Positions 1-25,841 of a DNA stretch of 64,000 bases are shown here, piece by piece. The stretch comes from a virus. Within the stretch, counting starts at the first letter, position 1, and every line of letters starts with the position of its first letter. The notes below the pieces were generated by a model. That model saw only the letters and a program-made list of their open reading frames with translations. It ran no database searches and was not told the origin of the DNA. The stretch is taken from positions 27,187 through 91,186 of IMG/VR virus record IMGVR_UViG_3300022751_000017. One strand, written 5' to 3'. The position numbers and the translations under genes were made by a program.

Positions 1-393
1 TGGGAGAGGGGGCAAAAATAGCTGTCAGAATTTACAGTATGTGCTTTCTCAGTCGATCTATAAGACACATCCAATAATCATGGGATGCAGTTGCACCCTT
101 TGCAAACAGTAGTGGATGCGGATTCTGGAGAGCTGGCGTATGGATTTGGGATAGTGACTTAGTTTGTACCGCTATTCCCATGGCGGATAGTTTACTTTCA
201 GAAATAGTAATGTCAGATGCCGTCTTTAGTGTGCTTTGCATAACAAAAATGTTTTAAATTTGTGATGCAATTTTATTTAAAGCGAAAAACCTCCCCACCT
301 GCTAAGTGGGGTTTTTCGTTTGTGGCTTAAAGGTAATCATATTTAAAAATACTTTTCAGTTTTTCACCTGTATAAAAATGTGAGAAATATTTT

Positions 394-401
394 TAGCTTT
401 G
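394..401 (+). promoter_or_regulatory. Bacteroidota sigma70 -7 box (TAGCTTTG)
   Basis: Matches TAnnTTTG; intergenic, upstream of the structured leader and OMP gene. Confidence 0.55.
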
Positions 402-539
402 CAAATTACCTTTTAAAATGCTATACGTATGAATATATAAAAAACATTGGCGACTTTTATCTTTTATACGCTTTTCCCTAAATTACCACCTTTACAAAAG
501 CTTATCCACGCTCGATATAAATAGATATGCCTAAATTAT

Positions 540-612
540 GGCGTAACTGTGTCTTTATGCGTGGATGGGTTGTGGTAAACCTAAGGGATGCACAGAGAAC
601 TACAGTTACGCC
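540..612 (+). ncRNA. Structured RNA hairpin, copy 1 (apical loop GTGGTAA)
   Basis: GGCGTAACTGT (540-550) pairs with ACAGTTACGCC (602-612); followed by a T-run; homologous to 811-876. Confidence 0.6.
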
Positions 613-810
613 TTGTTTTTTTCAAACGGCTGCAAGGTAAATGTATTTTGCTAATGCTTTATGTTTAAATTTGCCGGTACACAACAAACCAGATAAACAC
701 ATATGGATAGATAAAAAACTGCATTCCGAGAAGATTATTGCACCTTGAATTACCACAGTTTGAATTGCAAATTCCTTCCTTACACAAATGACTATGACGA
801 TGCGCCGCAT

Positions 811-876
811 GGCGTAGTTGTGTCTTTGTGTAAGAGGCCGTGGTAAGCCTAAGGTGCAAGGAATAACGACTACGCT
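811..876 (+). ncRNA. Structured RNA hairpin, copy 2 (apical loop GTGGTAA)
   Basis: GGCGTAGTTGT (811-821) pairs with ACGACTACGCT (866-876); compensatory changes relative to copy 1. Confidence 0.6.
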
Positions 877-912
877 ATTTTATTTTATAACGGCCACCTT
901 AAATTACCACAA

Positions 913-1566
913 ATGAAGAAGCCACTAATTGCTATCCTGGCGCTGCTCAGCACTGGGGTAAAAGCGCAGGATATTGCGCCAAAGAATCACACCAAAAATC
1001 AACACGTATTTGAGATATATGCAAATTACGGCATAGGGTTAAGTACATCCATGTCCGGGAATGCACTTTCTAATACTACAAATGAAAAATGGACAATTAA
1101 AGATGTTCCGTCCTATTCTGGCGGAGCCTCCATTTACATCATAAAGAGGCTGAATGTCGGTATATCTGCGCGCTCGTCTGTGTGGAATACGACATCTAAG
1201 CTAAGCGACAATATTACGGGTCCTACGGTATCTCCCAGGGTTACTACAGGCAAGACTTCGGTACTCTCTGTTTCTGCCTTTGCAAATTATAATCAGCCCA
1301 TTGGTAAAGGTGTTATCTATGTCGGAGGATCTGTTGGGTATGCCATTGCCAATGGTGACACGAAGCATCTTGCCAAAGGGAAAGGCCGCGATATGAATGG
1401 CCATATAGGCTATGCTCATCCTGTAGTAGGCCAAATATTATGGGTCACAGCTGAAGCCGGTATGTCCCAGGCAAAGATCACTCCCGATGGTCAGGTATTC
1501 TCGATAAAGCGAATATATTCTGTCACTAACTATCCGGTTTCTCTTGGATTAAAGGTCAGGATTTAA
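913..1566 (+). CDS. Outer-membrane beta-barrel protein (small OMP-like)
   Basis: Sec signal ending VKA|Q; amphipathic Gly/Tyr-rich strands; C-terminal strand YPVSLGLKVRI. Confidence 0.7.
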   Translation: MKKPLIAILALLSTGVKAQDIAPKNHTKNQHVFEIYANYGIGLSTSMSGNALSNTTNEKWTIKDVPSYSGGASIYIIKRLNVGISARSSVWNTTSKLSDNITGPTVSPRVTTGKTSVLSVSAFANYNQPIGKGVIYVGGSVGYAIANGDTKHLAKGKGRDMNGHIGYAHPVVGQILWVTAEAGMSQAKITPDGQVFSIKRIYSVTNYPVSLGLKVRI

Positions 1567-1576
1567 AACGTATGGC

Positions 1577-2065
1577 ATGATAGTAAAGATTATTCCAGAG
1601 GATAAGTACAGCCTATTTTATAAAAAGGAGACTTTAGCTGCTCATGTGGGCATTGGGATGATAGTAGCTGGGGGTGTGGTGCTTCCGTTATTAGGGACTA
1701 CACCTGGTATGTTCAGAATGATGTATTTGGGCGCCGGGATATTTTCGGCAATATGGGTCCATGCAATAGCTGAAGATCAAAACAGAGAGCCCTTATGGCT
1801 TTCAATAGCGGCATTCCTGTTCCCTGTATTTATGCTTATTGTGATGGGTTATTCCAGGAAAATGAATCTAGTGTTTTCTATTGATAATTCATATAGCGAA
1901 GAAGACAAGTATTATTCATTGAAGGGCTACGCTGATAAATTTGTAGAAAAAGGAAAGGTTGAAGAGGCGGAGATTGTATACCGCTATATCATCAGCAACC
2001 TTTTACATGATGAGGAAGATGAAGTATTGTATAGTAAACTTTTAAATAAGCTTACGCATGTCTGA
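1577..2065 (+). CDS. Membrane protein, about 3 TM segments plus a TPR-like C-terminal helix pair
   Basis: Hydrophobic segments in the translation; operon-like spacing. Confidence 0.6.
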   Translation: MIVKIIPEDKYSLFYKKETLAAHVGIGMIVAGGVVLPLLGTTPGMFRMMYLGAGIFSAIWVHAIAEDQNREPLWLSIAAFLFPVFMLIVMGYSRKMNLVFSIDNSYSEEDKYYSLKGYADKFVEKGKVEEAEIVYRYIISNLLHDEEDEVLYSKLLNKLTHV

Positions 2066-2789
2066 ATATATAAGTCAACACGATAATAAAGCGTATAATC
2101 ATTATGCTATTTTCGGAGTAATAACAATGGTTGTAACTCAATGCTATCTGAGTTACGTCACCTATCTACATGGAGGCATTAATGGGGTACTTGATGTGTT
2201 TTTATCTATATTCAGTGTTCTTGTTTTATGTGTCGGGATTGCATATATCGCTTTCTGGTCTTTAATAGTTGATAGATTCCCTAAAAAAGGTGATTTAAAT
2301 CATCCCAAAATGATAGTAATATTTGGATTTTATGCTTTTGTGTCAGCTATAGGGTATTTAGTCATGCTGTACTTTTGGAATGATGTTATAGAGGACATAA
2401 GCAATCCCATTTTTATCTACACTATTTTTTCGTTGCTGATATTAGCAATTGAATGTTTTTTAGTACGCAGAAAATTGAATTCAAGAATTAAAGAAGTGCA
2501 CAAAGAGTACATAGATGTGTATTCTTATATTGAAGAAGAAATCGAAAATATAAAAGAAGACAAATTGAGTTACGGCTATGCCTTCCAGCGATTAGTGGAT
2601 AAAAGATTCAAGAAGCATTATGAAGATTATGCAATGGAGCATTTGAGAGTTAATTACTGCATGTTGACTACGGATGAAAAAGTAAAGGATTTCGAAAAAT
2701 TTTCGCAACAATTTGAGTTGTTACATCCTGTAGTCATAAAAAATATTATTTATTTTCCCACGTATGGGTATAGGAAAATAAAGGCATAA
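2058..2789 (+). CDS. Membrane protein, about 4 TM segments
   Basis: Four hydrophobic stretches then a soluble tail; overlaps the upstream gene. Confidence 0.6.
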   Translation: MSEYISQHDNKAYNHYAIFGVITMVVTQCYLSYVTYLHGGINGVLDVFLSIFSVLVLCVGIAYIAFWSLIVDRFPKKGDLNHPKMIVIFGFYAFVSAIGYLVMLYFWNDVIEDISNPIFIYTIFSLLILAIECFLVRRKLNSRIKEVHKEYIDVYSYIEEEIENIKEDKLSYGYAFQRLVDKRFKKHYEDYAMEHLRVNYCMLTTDEKVKDFEKFSQQFELLHPVVIKNIIYFPTYGYRKIKA

Positions 2790-2797
2790 CATTCCAT

Positions 2798-2805
2798 TAT
2801 ATTTG
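2798..2805 (+). promoter_or_regulatory. -7 box TATATTTG immediately before the ATG at 2810
   Basis: Consensus match 4 nt from the start codon. Confidence 0.5.
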
Positions 2806-2809
2806 TAGA

Positions 2810-3310
2810 ATGAAATTCGATAAAATACAGCGGCTATCAAATATTGATTTCATTACTCATTACAGTGAAATGTGGTGGTCATTATCATTATATCCTGCAG
2901 AATATAATCATTCTAAGGTAGGTGAAATATCTATAAAGATAACCAGGGGCGAAGTGACGAGAAAATATCATCCAGTCGACTATTTGAATTACATTATTGA
3001 ATACTATACCCAAAAAATGGGTCAAACAACTAATTTGTATGATCAGCACGTAATGGCGATAACGCTTAGGGCTACCATATCAAATCAAATTGAAAGTTTT
3101 AAAGAATTATTGGTAGGCGCAGATGAGTCGACTGAAAAATATGATTTTTCAAGCCAGATGAATAAGGCTAACAATATAGCTGAGTTATCTAAAGGGAAAA
3201 TAGATATAGCCGGATACAGGCGAGAAAGATACAAGTTTTGGTATGGTGTTTTTACTGGCGCAGCAACTGCGTCCATAGGTTTGCTCACGCTCTATTTCAA
3301 CACAAAATAA
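2810..3310 (+). CDS. Hypothetical protein with C-terminal membrane anchor
   Basis: 166-aa ORF ending in a hydrophobic segment (FWYGVFTGAATASIGLLTLYF). Confidence 0.6.
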   Translation: MKFDKIQRLSNIDFITHYSEMWWSLSLYPAEYNHSKVGEISIKITRGEVTRKYHPVDYLNYIIEYYTQKMGQTTNLYDQHVMAITLRATISNQIESFKELLVGADESTEKYDFSSQMNKANNIAELSKGKIDIAGYRRERYKFWYGVFTGAATASIGLLTLYFNTK

Positions 3311-24105: not shown

Positions 24106-24386
24106 TTCCTGACCGTTTTCTTTTCAGGGACATGTGCCCTGCTTATATCACGGAGAGCCCTGCTTGATTTATTTTTCCTATAGTCTATATAGTTTCTATT
24201 GTTGCTGCAACCTTTATTCAGATTGCATGAATGGCATAGCGTCTGCAGGTTTGTATAGTAATTGGTGCCTCCTTTTGACAAGGGTATTATGTGGTCTATA
24301 GTAAGATTGAATCTGGCGTTGCAAAGCAGACACATGTTATTATCTCTCTTGAAAATTGCCTCTCTTACTGCTTTGCGTATGGGCAT
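24093..24386 (-). CDS. HNH endonuclease
   Basis: CLLC...DHIIPLSKGG..Y..NLQTLCHSCN..K. Confidence 0.92.
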   Translation of the reverse strand: MPIRKAVREAIFKRDNNMCLLCNARFNLTIDHIIPLSKGGTNYYTNLQTLCHSCNLNKGCSNNRNYIDYRKNKSSRALRDISRAHVPEKKTVRKFHK

Positions 24387-24390
24387 AGCG

Positions 24391-24693
24391 TTAGTCTATT
24401 TTTTTACCTTTGATAGCTAAGGATATGAGTGCAGAGAAGGATATGCCGGTATCGTATGATTTACAAAGTATCTTATCGGATACGAATTTAGGGATATCAA
24501 TTTCGTGAGACTTTTCTATCTTATCTATGGCTATACCATGGCATGGGGCACACTTGGATACAGACCCGTACTCTTTCATTATCTTATGGTGAATGTACAT
24601 GCCAATAGATATCTTCATTTCGGCAGCTTCTGCATAGAAAATGGCCCATTCTGCCTCTGTATACCGGAGCCTGAGTTTAAAACTATTATTCAT
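24391..24693 (-). CDS. Putative tandem ribbon-helix-helix DNA-binding protein
   Basis: Two RHH-like patterns, KLRLRYTEAEWAIF...KISIGMYIH and HEIDIPKFVSDKI...GISFSALI, linked by CAPC. Confidence 0.55.
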   Translation of the reverse strand: MNNSFKLRLRYTEAEWAIFYAEAAEMKISIGMYIHHKIMKEYGSVSKCAPCHGIAIDKIEKSHEIDIPKFVSDKILCKSYDTGISFSALISLAIKGKKID

Positions 24694-24710
24694 TAAGGAA
24701 GTTGTGAGTT

Positions 24711-24727
24711 ACCTGCAAAGTGCAGGT
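24711..24727. promoter_or_regulatory. Palindromic operator, copy 3
   Basis: ACCTGCAAAGTGCAGGT, 18 nt from the 24693 start; 24705-24731 matches 13061-13087 at 26/27 nt. Confidence 0.7.
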
Positions 24728-24767
24728 AAAGCTATGCAAATTCATTCTTATTACCAATAGTGGTTTA

Positions 24768-24775
24768 TACTTTTG
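24768..24775 (+). promoter_or_regulatory. -7 box TACTTTTG for the capsid operon
   Basis: Consensus match upstream of 24792. Confidence 0.5.
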
Positions 24776-24791
24776 ATATGAATTATATTTT

Positions 24792-25841
24792 ATGGCAGTC
24801 ACAGACACGAACACACAACCAGGTCAGGCGGCGGAACAGGTAAATGCACCAGCAGTAGATAACACTACAGTTGTTGCAGATACTGCTATTCCAGCCCAGG
24901 AACCTGCGGATGCTGAAAAGCCGAAGATTGATATTGACGCAATAGATGAGGATACTCAGCTGCGCCTTATCAATAAAGCGCTTGGCTCAAATTATAAAAC
25001 TCTGGATGAGGCTAAGCCGAAGGCTGTAAGGTCCCCGGAAGATATAGCTGCAGAGAAAGAAGCTAAGAAACAAAAAGCGCTGGAGTGGGCTCTAGGTACC
25101 GGCAAGACAAAGAAGGATGAATATGAGAGAGCAATCATAGAGCGCTCTAAGAATACCCGGGATATTGCCATGGCGTTATTTGCAGAGCAGGAGCGCGCAG
25201 AAAATCCAAAGATCAGTGAAGAAGAGATCGCGGCGCAATTTTCTGATGAATACCATGAAGACCTGGATATTGACTCTCCTCTCCGTAAGCGTGCTCTGGC
25301 AAGAATGGATAAAGTTGCAAAAAGTTACCTCGCAGAAATCACCGGTCCTATTGATAACATAGAAGCTGAATACGACAACTACATTTCAGATACAGAGAAG
25401 TACACCGGCTACCAGAAGCAGATAAAGAATGTCGCAAGTGCATTGCCCAAGGAGTTAGTGGTTTCAATACCATACACAGGGGCGGATGGCACCGAGACAA
25501 CATTGGAATATAAAGTCCCGGTTGAAGATAATGTGATGACTGCAGTGCGCAAAGAGTTCCTGGACGCCAATACATACCTGGCTATTTCCGGGTCTGGCAG
25601 AGAGATAAAGGATGCTGACATTGCCAACGAAATGACCGCGGCTATCGAAAACCGGATATTGCGCAAGGCGATACCTAAGATGCTGGCCGATCATGGCGAA
25701 AAGGTTGCCAAAGACTTCGAAGCGCATCTTAAGGCTATACCAAATACAGGGAATAACCTCGGATTTGGGAATACCGCACGCCCCGGGGAGGCAAAAAAGC
25801 CACCTGAATATACAGCACTCCGCGCGCATCAGAAATACTAA
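24792..25841 (+). CDS. Scaffold-like protein preceding the MCP
   Basis: Acidic, helical, disordered N-terminus; position between portal and MCP. Confidence 0.6.
   Translation: MAVTDTNTQPGQAAEQVNAPAVDNTTVVADTAIPAQEPADAEKPKIDIDAIDEDTQLRLINKALGSNYKTLDEAKPKAVRSPEDIAAEKEAKKQKALEWALGTGKTKKDEYERAIIERSKNTRDIAMALFAEQERAENPKISEEEIAAQFSDEYHEDLDIDSPLRKRALARMDKVAKSYLAEITGPIDNIEAEYDNYISDTEKYTGYQKQIKNVASALPKELVVSIPYTGADGTETTLEYKVPVEDNVMTAVRKEFLDANTYLAISGSGREIKDADIANEMTAAIENRILRKAIPKMLADHGEKVAKDFEAHLKAIPNTGNNLGFGNTARPGEAKKPPEYTALRAHQKY

Follow-up and report, generated by a model that had tools for sequence, protein, structure and literature searches.

A putative two-state leader RNA, carried in tandem upstream of a probable outer-membrane protein gene in a phage, belongs to an uncatalogued family of Bacteroidota

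Several phage-associated RNAs control the genes with which they are transcribed. The CI RNA of phage P4 lies between two sequences that are complementary to it, seqA upstream and seqC downstream, so that the antisense segment is flanked by target copies on one transcript, and premature termination is involved (PMC4825925). The C4 RNA of phages P1 and P7 occludes a ribosome-binding site (RBS) with its a'/b' loops, and a few covarying nucleotides set the specificity between relatives (PMC5320573). IsrK of the Gifsy-1 prophage occurs in two forms, a read-through mRNA and a short RNA that results from termination, and the latter changes how the former is translated (PMC4825925). Moreover, GibS and FopS of Bacteroides thetaiotaomicron are multicopy RNAs that pair near the start codons of envelope-protein genes and have copies also in phage; FopS begins with a single-stranded seed, R1, at its 5' end, has a terminator hairpin after it, and targets susC mRNAs in trans together with the protein RbpB (PMC11697453). 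Here, we analyze the final 64 kb (64,000 nucleotides, called the window) of a 91-kb phage record, IMGVR_UViG_3300022751_000017 in IMG/VR, in which two tandem RNA units precede an open reading frame (ORF) of 217 amino acids that starts at position 913. We conclude that the units belong to a family that works like known kinds of RNA, namely attenuators and cotranscribed antisense immunity RNAs, but has an architecture of its own.

How the two units are built extends well beyond what meets the eye in the sequence. On balance, we favor the view that each unit is a bistable leader RNA, a two-state switch, of a Bacteroidota-wide family that has not been catalogued. The noncoding stretch that holds them (242-912) is flanked by a possible divergent ORF of 69 amino acids (241-32, minus strand) and by the 217-amino-acid ORF, and it contains a tandem duplication of about 270 nt, 73% identical and conserved in blocks. 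An earlier reading made from the sequence alone had called attention to two hairpins (540-612 and 811-876) with the common loop GTGGTAA (572-578 and 840-846), three copies of the complement TTACCAC (at 483, 750, and 904), and T-rich runs after the hairpins, and we find all of these, the third TTACCAC lying two bases before the ATG at 913. The plus-strand orientation proposed at the same time agrees with the folding energies, as the minus strand folds more weakly (-28.4 and -18.3 kcal/mol versus -35.8 and -30.9 kcal/mol), and with the frequent G-U pairs, which point to plus as the RNA strand. The idea of an RNA switch was borne out, but its extent was not: the element is larger than a hairpin and has two exclusive folds, a bipartite box, and a promoter box of its own for each unit. 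Each hairpin is the terminator fold of one of two tandem promoter-to-terminator units, which measure about 190 nt counted from the likely start site, or about 140 nt from box to U-run.

The layout of the family, from 5' to 3', is a bipartite box (b5'-AAA-b3'), a short linker, the 5' arm of a hairpin that we call P1 (strands S, d, and e1), the P1 loop, a central strand (e2, f, and S'), a small hairpin P2 (4 to 6 bp with a 7- to 8-nt loop), strand i, the 3' arm of the terminator (j and k), and a U-tract. In the phage, the corresponding features are these:

394..401, plus strand: promoter-like -7 box TAGCTTTG of unit 1, an exact match to the Bacteroidota consensus TAnnTTTG 75 nt before the unit 1 box; putative promoter
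425..445, plus strand: conserved 5' block ACGTATGAATATATAAAAAAC of unit 1, 86% identical to 699-719 and resembling ACATATnnAATAT blocks upstream of bacterial copies
475..489, plus strand: decoy box of unit 1 (box A), with b5' UCCCU (475-479), AAA (480-482), and b3' UUACCAC (483-489); complementary to loop 572-578 and AGGGA (584-588)
504..566, plus strand: predicted antiterminator hairpin P1 of unit 1, with S 504-511 against S' 559-566 and e1 526-531 against e2 540-545; inverted repeat I2, RNAfold energy of the 5' part -24.6 kcal/mol
540..622, plus strand: predicted terminator fold T1, with hairpin 540-612, P2 566-583 with loop GUGGUA (572-577), and U-run 613-622; -35.8 kcal/mol, z -5.4
645..673, plus strand: promoter-like elements of unit 2, with TTTG (645-648), 17 nt, and TAAATTTG (666-673), an exact TAnnTTTG match 70 nt before the unit 2 box; putative promoter
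699..719, plus strand: conserved 5' block ACATATGGATAGATAAAAAAC of unit 2, direct repeat D4 with 425-445
740..756, plus strand: decoy box of unit 2 (box B), with b5' GCACCUUG (740-747), AA (748-749), and b3' UUACCAC (750-756); complementary to loop 840-846 and UAAGGUGC (850-857)
779..834, plus strand: predicted antiterminator hairpin P1 of unit 2, with S CUUACACAAA (779-788) against S' UUUGUGUAAG (825-834) and e1 UGCGCC (801-806) against e2 GGCGUA (811-816); inverted repeat I20, 10/10 complementary, RNAfold energy -27.1 kcal/mol
811..886, plus strand: predicted terminator fold T2, with hairpin 811-876, P2 835-838/847-850, loop CGUGGUAA (839-846), anti-b5' strand 851-857, and U-run 877-886; -30.9 kcal/mol, z -3.6
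894..915, plus strand: start-codon box (box C), CCACCUU-AAA-UUACCAC, then AA, then AUG at 913; can form a bipartite duplex with the loop and flank of either unit
913..1566, plus strand: downstream gene for a 217-amino-acid secreted protein with a signal-peptide-like N terminus and likeness to OMP_b-brl

In all 91 kb of the genome, the extended box AATTACCAC has exactly three copies, each within this locus, and a covariance model (CM) search of the phage genome returned only the two copies of the element. The promoter-like segment of unit 2 is also a direct repeat (D11) with 253-262.

Whether the two hairpins could resemble one another by chance cannot be judged from the phage alone. The sequence-only reading had stressed compensatory differences between their basal stems (A-U to G-C, C-G to U-A, and U-A to U-G), which are real when checked by hand on the alignment and folds, and the apical stem adds another (U-A to C-G). 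Because the copies are a tandem duplication at 73% identity, however, the hairpins are not independent events, and differences between only two paralogs are insufficient on their own; what argues decisively against chance is a set of about 50 homologues in other genomes. The genomes in which to look were suggested by an insertion sequence (IS) in the phage that carries a DDE_Tnp_1 transposase (genome positions 24233-25228, L004:7234-8229, about 2.9 to 2.0 kb before window position 1). The closest relatives of that transposase are in Chitinophagaceae (Flavipsychrobacter at 67% amino acid identity, Terrimonas, and Ferruginibacter), and this family was therefore taken as the likely host and supplied the bacterial genomes for the search. 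A CM built from the two phage hairpins only (R1), which scored units 1 and 2 at 106.6 and 87.8 bits, matched a Flavipsychrobacter metagenome-assembled genome (MAG) at E 4e-12 and then, among 151 sampled Chitinophagaceae genomes, found 14 with a single site apiece. An extended CM that runs from the upstream box through the U-run (R2; 95.5 and 98.6 bits for units 1 and 2) gave 34 matches in 24 of the 151 sampled genomes (16%), up to four per genome, and in a phylum-wide Bacteroidota sample it added 12 further genomes, some with tandem copies. Verified copies occur in Galbibacter orientalis, Parabacteroides sp. PF5-6, Parapedobacter soli, and one Ferruginibacter MAG, and a second phage contig, IMGVR_UViG_3300023076_000006, has an R2 match of 103.6 bits. 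Altogether, the family spans at least four orders and two phage contigs. We conclude that it is mainly bacterial and is not specific to phages.

The earlier suggestion that the RNA had gone unrecognized also holds. Rfam 15 gave no cmscan match over the element in window positions 1-3000 at E<=10 and none over the element in any of 14 bacterial loci at E<=1, and the only real Rfam match in these scans was an unrelated tRNA. ARAGORN, run for tRNA and tmRNA, found none, and no tRNA-like feature was seen; a literature search found no description of the family. Among viruses, blastn of the first 8 kb against a phage database gave no match, a first exact-pattern scan of viral contigs returned 0 matches, and a second returned 9 loci, only one of which was a true family member. 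The one related phage that was found via the portal protein has neither the outer-membrane protein gene nor the RNA. Finally, synteny between the phage and the Flavipsychrobacter locus was considered and rejected, as the two have only the IS transposase in common, at 68% nucleotide identity. We note that in the Flavipsychrobacter MAG this 68%-identical IS copy lies 1.5 kb from the genome's own copy of the RNA.

Comparative analysis shows that four predicted pairings, those of the box with the loop and its flank, of P1, of the terminator stem, and of the start-codon box, are all kept by compensatory change. The first is a pseudoknot around P2, in which b3' would pair with the P2 loop and b5' with strand i while the A-rich linker faces the P2 stem. 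RNAalifold recovered these long-range pairs unaided from a plain MAFFT alignment, with 14 pairs double-changed. Across 32 sequences, the loop and box were paired in 100% of cells and the flank and box in 95.5%; all 14 box pairs were double-changed, 0 of 500 shuffles did as well, and slid controls reached 33 to 41%. Duplex energies tell the same story, at -21.8 kcal/mol for cognate box-loop combinations versus -8.9 kcal/mol for noncognate ones. The loops are very diverse (GUGGUAA, UUCGACA, UUCCAGA, GUCGUAG, GUCGCAG, UCCGACG, CUGGCGA, and others), and the box always matches. In the phage, box B pairs with loop 2 and its flank at -25.2 kcal/mol (0/500 shuffles as good) and box A pairs with its own loop 1 and flank at -16.8 kcal/mol (8/500 shuffles as good). 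P2 itself covaries, and two of its G-C pairs are nearly invariant, as is the AAA linker (30/32), a combination that suggests a minor-groove contact. Two subfamilies can be told apart, that of the phage (subfamily I, GGCGUA...UACGCY) and a second (subfamily II, GGCGUGGGCG...ACCCACG).

The attenuator that the sequence-only reading had envisaged finds a counterpart in the hairpin and U-run, which form a covarying terminator. In the 32 sequences, its basal stem, which was not in the CM structure used for alignment, is 99.2% paired with 5 of 8 pairs double-changed, and the first pair accounts for 13 G-U pairs. A U-tract (at least 5 T in 8 nt) follows the terminator in all 47 members examined. Alternatively, the central strand can fold with preceding sequence into P1, a long three-tier hairpin that is predicted for each of the 32 sequences, with energies of -20 to -37 kcal/mol. 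The outer helix of P1 has 4 to 11 contiguous pairs with all four Watson-Crick pair types at every position, and its duplex energy is -14.9 kcal/mol for cognate and -7.2 kcal/mol for noncognate strands. RNAalifold on a MAFFT alignment of this region recovered e1:e2 only, because the variable S and S' strands misalign, and was replaced by per-sequence folding and tabulation of helices.

P1 and the lower stems of the terminator use the same strand (e2/f/S') and are therefore mutually exclusive, as in unit 2, where P1 competes with the lower stems of hairpin 811-876. Such conserved, exclusive helices that share a strand, together with a U-tract upstream of an ORF, amount to a terminator/antiterminator design and are what defines an attenuator or expression platform; the energies of the terminator (-26 to -40 kcal/mol) are comparable to those of P1. 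A plain intrinsic terminator does not fit, since the hairpin covaries with about 60 nt of the sequence before it and no same-strand gene ends just upstream in the phage, where the neighboring gene is divergent. Moreover, with a promoter box before it and a terminator at its end, each unit looks like a separate promoter-to-terminator module, and TAnnTTTG is likewise found 40 to 50 nt upstream of the copies in many bacterial homologues. A promoter would not fit into the short space that separates hairpin 2 from the ATG at 913, and thus the mRNA of the 217-amino-acid protein must read through unit 2.

In the subfamily of the phage, the box is written once more at the start codon of some downstream genes. 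Of 47 members, 13 have an identical 7-mer again no more than 80 nt downstream, unit 2 of the phage included, against a chance expectation of about 0.005 per sequence, and when four later members are counted, a repeat lies within 400 nt in 14 of 51. An ATG follows 1 to 4 nt after the downstream 7-mer in 12 of the 13, again with phage unit 2 among them, and these represent six different codes. In those 12 members, both halves of the start-codon box are complementary to the member's own loop and flank (-16 to -25 kcal/mol, with the cognate ranked 1 or 2), and the arrangement occurs before unrelated downstream genes. For the phage, box C pairs with loop 2 and its flank at -19.4 kcal/mol (0/500 shuffles as good) and with loop 1 and its flank at -18.2 kcal/mol (1/500 shuffles as good). 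This pattern is direct comparative support for the predicted loop-target pairing, which the sequence-only reading had put forward and which now draws on complete covariation of the loop with the box upstream of it in 32 homologues, and on its covariation with the box at the start codon over six loop sequences. In five carrier genomes, the box was no commoner before ATGs elsewhere than a reversed control. Thus, the target appears to be local, and we reject a large trans regulon.

How a unit would switch can be proposed from the order in which its parts are made. P1 would be transcribed first, before the 3' arm of the terminator. In the read-through state, P1 would stand, the terminator could not form, and the decoy box would be held beside the loop; the anti-RBS loop would be masked and the start-codon box free, so that transcription and translation would both be on. 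Were P1 prevented or displaced, the terminator would fold and transcripts would end at the U-run, and in those that escaped, the loop would capture the nearby start-codon box, turning both off. The phage would have two such units of the same code in series before its probable outer-membrane beta-barrel gene. Unit 1 probably gives a short terminated RNA, the loop of which could pair with the decoy box of unit 2 and with the start-codon box and so tighten repression. IsrK is similar in being a prophage leader that exists as a terminated RNA and a read-through mRNA, forms that are only proposed for our family, but it activates translation by opening an inhibitory structure and is unrelated in architecture and phylum.

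Several points weigh against the two-state switch. For all members, start sites, termination, and read-through were deduced from motifs. One alignment (A6) was made to a model that includes the box pairs and is biased toward them, a bias from which the MAFFT/RNAalifold result and the duplex energies are free. In nested folding, all 32 sequences had the read-through fold as their structure of lowest energy; formation of the terminator fold may hence depend on a factor, and either state could be the default. The pseudoknot could be present in both folds, and a handover of the loop from decoy to start-codon box is argued by proximity only. No conserved unpaired pocket for a ligand is evident on the alignment. 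Finally, about 70% of the analyzed members lack a start-codon box, including all of subfamily II, which keeps the pseudoknot and the switch. Thus, translational control is not the universal function of the family.

Alternatively, the hairpin might be released as a short immunity RNA of the C4/CI type that acts mainly in trans on boxes of the same code in nascent or full-length transcripts, in a self-reinforcing shutoff of the downstream gene, as C4 of P1/P7 does on a2/b2 and P4 CI on seqA/seqC, with the variable codes as determinants of specificity akin to heteroimmunity. We regard this as unlikely, although several observations favor it. The order of box, complementary RNA with a bipartite loop, and box at the RBS is the same as in P4 CI and C4, and C4 (RF01695) is likewise a structured RNA that is cotranscribed with its target, has bipartite complementarity with one part over a downstream RBS, is associated with phages and mobile elements, and is multicopy in some bacterial genomes. 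In both phage contigs, the tandem units have a single code in common, and for loop 1, the predicted pairing with boxes B and C (-18.5 and -18.2 kcal/mol) is about as strong as that with its own box A. Many distinct codes exist, the commonest of which is found in the phage and in several bacteria, and some downstream genes are of accessory or exclusion-like types (Imm_superinfect, AIPR, HEPN, and Acyl_transf_3). A trans-acting RNA on the upstream box would not itself block P1, however, and the conserved competition between P1 and the terminator would go unexplained. Moreover, in an unprocessed RNA the loop would be masked by its own stronger cis box (-25.2 kcal/mol in unit 2), no processing signal was identified, and the tandem copies of bacteria differ in code, to which the lack of enrichment before other ATGs in five genomes can be added.

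These immunity RNAs are the nearest analogues in function, but the resemblance is one of principle rather than descent. The element has no match to RF01695 in sequence or structure. C4 is an RNA of about 77 nt with three stem-loops that is released by RNase P in Pseudomonadota, whereas the complementarity of the Bacteroidota family resides in one loop and its 3' flank, and the RNA has an intrinsic terminator and a competing antiterminator of its own. As for P4 CI, targets lie on both sides of the RNA in part of the family, with an upstream box in all members and a downstream box in 13 of 47. CI acts in trans after processing, with termination at sites on the target transcript, whereas the terminator of the family is part of the RNA fold and the downstream copy sits on the start codon, and no homology to CI was detected. 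GibS and FopS are like the family in being multicopy Bacteroidota RNAs with phage copies that pair near start codons, but the family presents its seed in a hairpin loop that is covered by a decoy in cis, and it targets the gene next to it. Identity with them was rejected, as the Rfam-listed family gave no match and the architecture differs from that described (PMC11697453).

A ligand or protein might instead read the pseudoknot (box, P2, and AAA linker) and set the balance of P1 and terminator, in which case the box-loop pairing would be architectural and the start-codon copy a by-product of duplication. We consider such a riboswitch-like or protein-binding leader improbable, even though it would suit the presence of the pseudoknot in all members, the roughly 70% without a start-codon box included, the near invariance of the linker and the two P2 G-C pairs (30/32), as expected of a tertiary contact, and the terminator/antiterminator design. 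Riboswitch and attenuator platforms, including pseudoknotted aptamers of the SAM-II and preQ1-II type, also have exclusive helices that share a strand, a U-tract, and an A-rich strand that crosses a short G-C pseudoknot helix, and in these general respects the family is like them. Unlike metabolite riboswitches, it has a hypervariable pseudoknot, an extra copy of one strand at the start codon, and downstream genes without a common pathway, and nearly all of its conserved nucleotides are helical, with no conserved bulge or junction pocket. With helical conservation and heterogeneous downstream genes, a metabolite riboswitch proper was rejected. Finally, in 12 members that represent six codes, the start-codon box keeps both halves complementary and a spacing of 1 to 4 nt to the ATG, which is unlikely for a neutral by-product.

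Translation of a leader peptide could also govern attenuation if ribosomes that start at an AUG in the 5' arm of P1, at 788 or at the minimal ORFs, blocked P1 or the terminator. We think this very improbable. By eye on the alignment, an ATG lies inside P1 9 to 13 nt before e1 in about 11 of 16 subfamily I members, and in the phage the ORF at 788-817 ends within the 5' arm of the terminator. That ORF and the ATG-GCG-TAA/TAG ORFs to which the sequence-only reading had drawn attention do exist, but they are not conserved: ATG-GCG-stop is found in only 4 of 16 subfamily I homologues, and the ATG is missing from 5 of 16 members and most of subfamily II. Moreover, the ORFs range from about 2 to about 55 codons (by eye) with no conserved peptide or stop position among subfamily I members. 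Finally, a DNA-level element bound by a recombinase or repressor, or ordinary terminators recently duplicated and without function, would fit the tandem duplication, the frequent transposase neighbors, and motif copies, direct and inverted, that would covary too if a DNA-binding protein shifted specificity, but we dismiss it as extremely improbable given the many G-U pairs and clear strand asymmetry, a linker conserved as noncomplementary (AAA facing GCC of P2), covariation of three further helices (P1, P2, and the terminator stem), an orientation to promoter box, U-tract, and downstream ATG that is fixed in about 50 loci, and the lack of a same-strand gene ending just upstream in the phage.

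What the family controls appears to be heterogeneous and accessory-like. A same-strand ORF begins within 1 to 160 nt downstream in 30 of 32 homologues. Bacterial downstream genes include AIPR, Acyl_transf_3, Imm_superinfect, HEPN, RDD, a response regulator, a histidine kinase, and extracytoplasmic function (ECF) sigma factors, and many others encode orphan secreted proteins or lipoproteins. In the phage, the 217-amino-acid protein is probably an outer-membrane beta-barrel, as the earlier label of OMP had implied: in the ESM Atlas it had a feature score of 0.98 and a structural TM of 0.71 to 0.77 to OMP_b-brl clusters. It had no Pfam or PHROG match and was an orphan in a search of 5.8 billion proteins, and thus no orthologous leaders were recovered; a single-sequence AF2 model had a pLDDT of 29 and was unusable. 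Five subfamily II copies (L115, L117, L121, L124, and L126) precede homologous proteins, mostly of about 100 amino acids (one ORF has 297), that share a motif ...(E/Q)DFF..(F/Y)HL..., and the three that were scanned (L115, L117, and L126) had no Pfam match. We speculate that the DFF/HL-motif protein may be a conserved partner of subfamily II.

The surroundings of bacterial copies are rich in mobile genes. Within about 2 kb of ten copies, an IS1595-type transposase was present at five (L147, L149, L151, L152, and L154) and DDE_Tnp_1 at two, and KilA-N, DUF3987, AAA_15, and UvrD genes also lie near bacterial copies. Nearby transposases and genes of this kind indicate that the family lives in variable, mobile regions. 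The adjacency to IS1595 is possibly more than an effect of variable islands, with the hairpin as an insertion target or the cassettes as passengers.

Posttranscriptional control in Bacteroidota is poorly charted, and ribosomes of the phylum largely ignore Shine-Dalgarno sequences; to our knowledge, few cis-regulatory RNAs have been reported there. Against this background, the family is unusually cleanly supported, by three-way covariation of decoy, loop, and start-codon box, and it precedes accessory surface, exclusion, and defense-type genes in islands rich in transposases. It is compact in design and seems to be reprogrammable, with one short code written three times and a terminator/antiterminator toggle. 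Such a switch may explain how "moron"-type cargo genes are silenced and then released in Bacteroidota phages and mobile islands. One might go further and regard the loop/box code as an address system common to phages and hosts, an RNA-level layer of code-specific immunity and anti-immunity in Bacteroidota, but this is a speculation to which we give little credence. If it were true, the phage would carry the code that is commonest in hosts (AAUUACCAC / GUGGUAA) on both of its tandem RNAs, and these short, abundant RNAs could base-pair with leaders in the host or its prophages that bear this code. Leaders of exclusion- and defense-type genes (Imm_superinfect, an O-antigen-type acyltransferase, and lipoproteins) could then be silenced, and resident copies could conversely silence the outer-membrane protein gene of an incoming phage.

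Tandem copies are arranged differently in phages and bacteria. The second phage contig (L155:960-1330) has two tandem units with a single shared code, UCGCCAG/CUGGCGA. Its unit 1 is a diverged variant (stem GGCGGCAAC/GUUGCCGCU) followed by a box and a 7-codon ORF, and its unit 2 is followed by a start-codon box and the gene for a small membrane protein. Unlike both phages, the bacterial loci L136:915-1639 and L144:1501-1906 have tandem copies with different loop/box codes. We speculate that tandem units of the same code may arise by unequal recombination between flanking boxes.

Finally, small hairpins accompany some of the units. In subfamily II copies (e.g., L116, L117, L119, and L123), two features lie upstream of the box: a block rich in AAUAUU and a small 5' hairpin that is conserved as AGCGUGUUUGCU or as the variant GCAGC-UUCG-GCUGC. 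Together, these suggest that the RNA may begin about 30 nt before the sequence that the model describes. In the phage, an extra hairpin, GUUUG-AAUUG-CAAAU, occupies window positions 758-772 in the linker between the box and P1 of unit 2 and is absent from unit 1 and most homologues. A G+C-rich hairpin, CCCCACCTGCTAAGTGGGG, lies at window positions 293-318 with T-runs on both strands, like a bidirectional terminator, just after a promoter-like TAAATTTG box at 255-262, and the flank that follows it (324-344) resembles the flank after hairpin 1 (628-648). We note that this hairpin may be what is left of a third unit upstream or may belong to a very short transcript.

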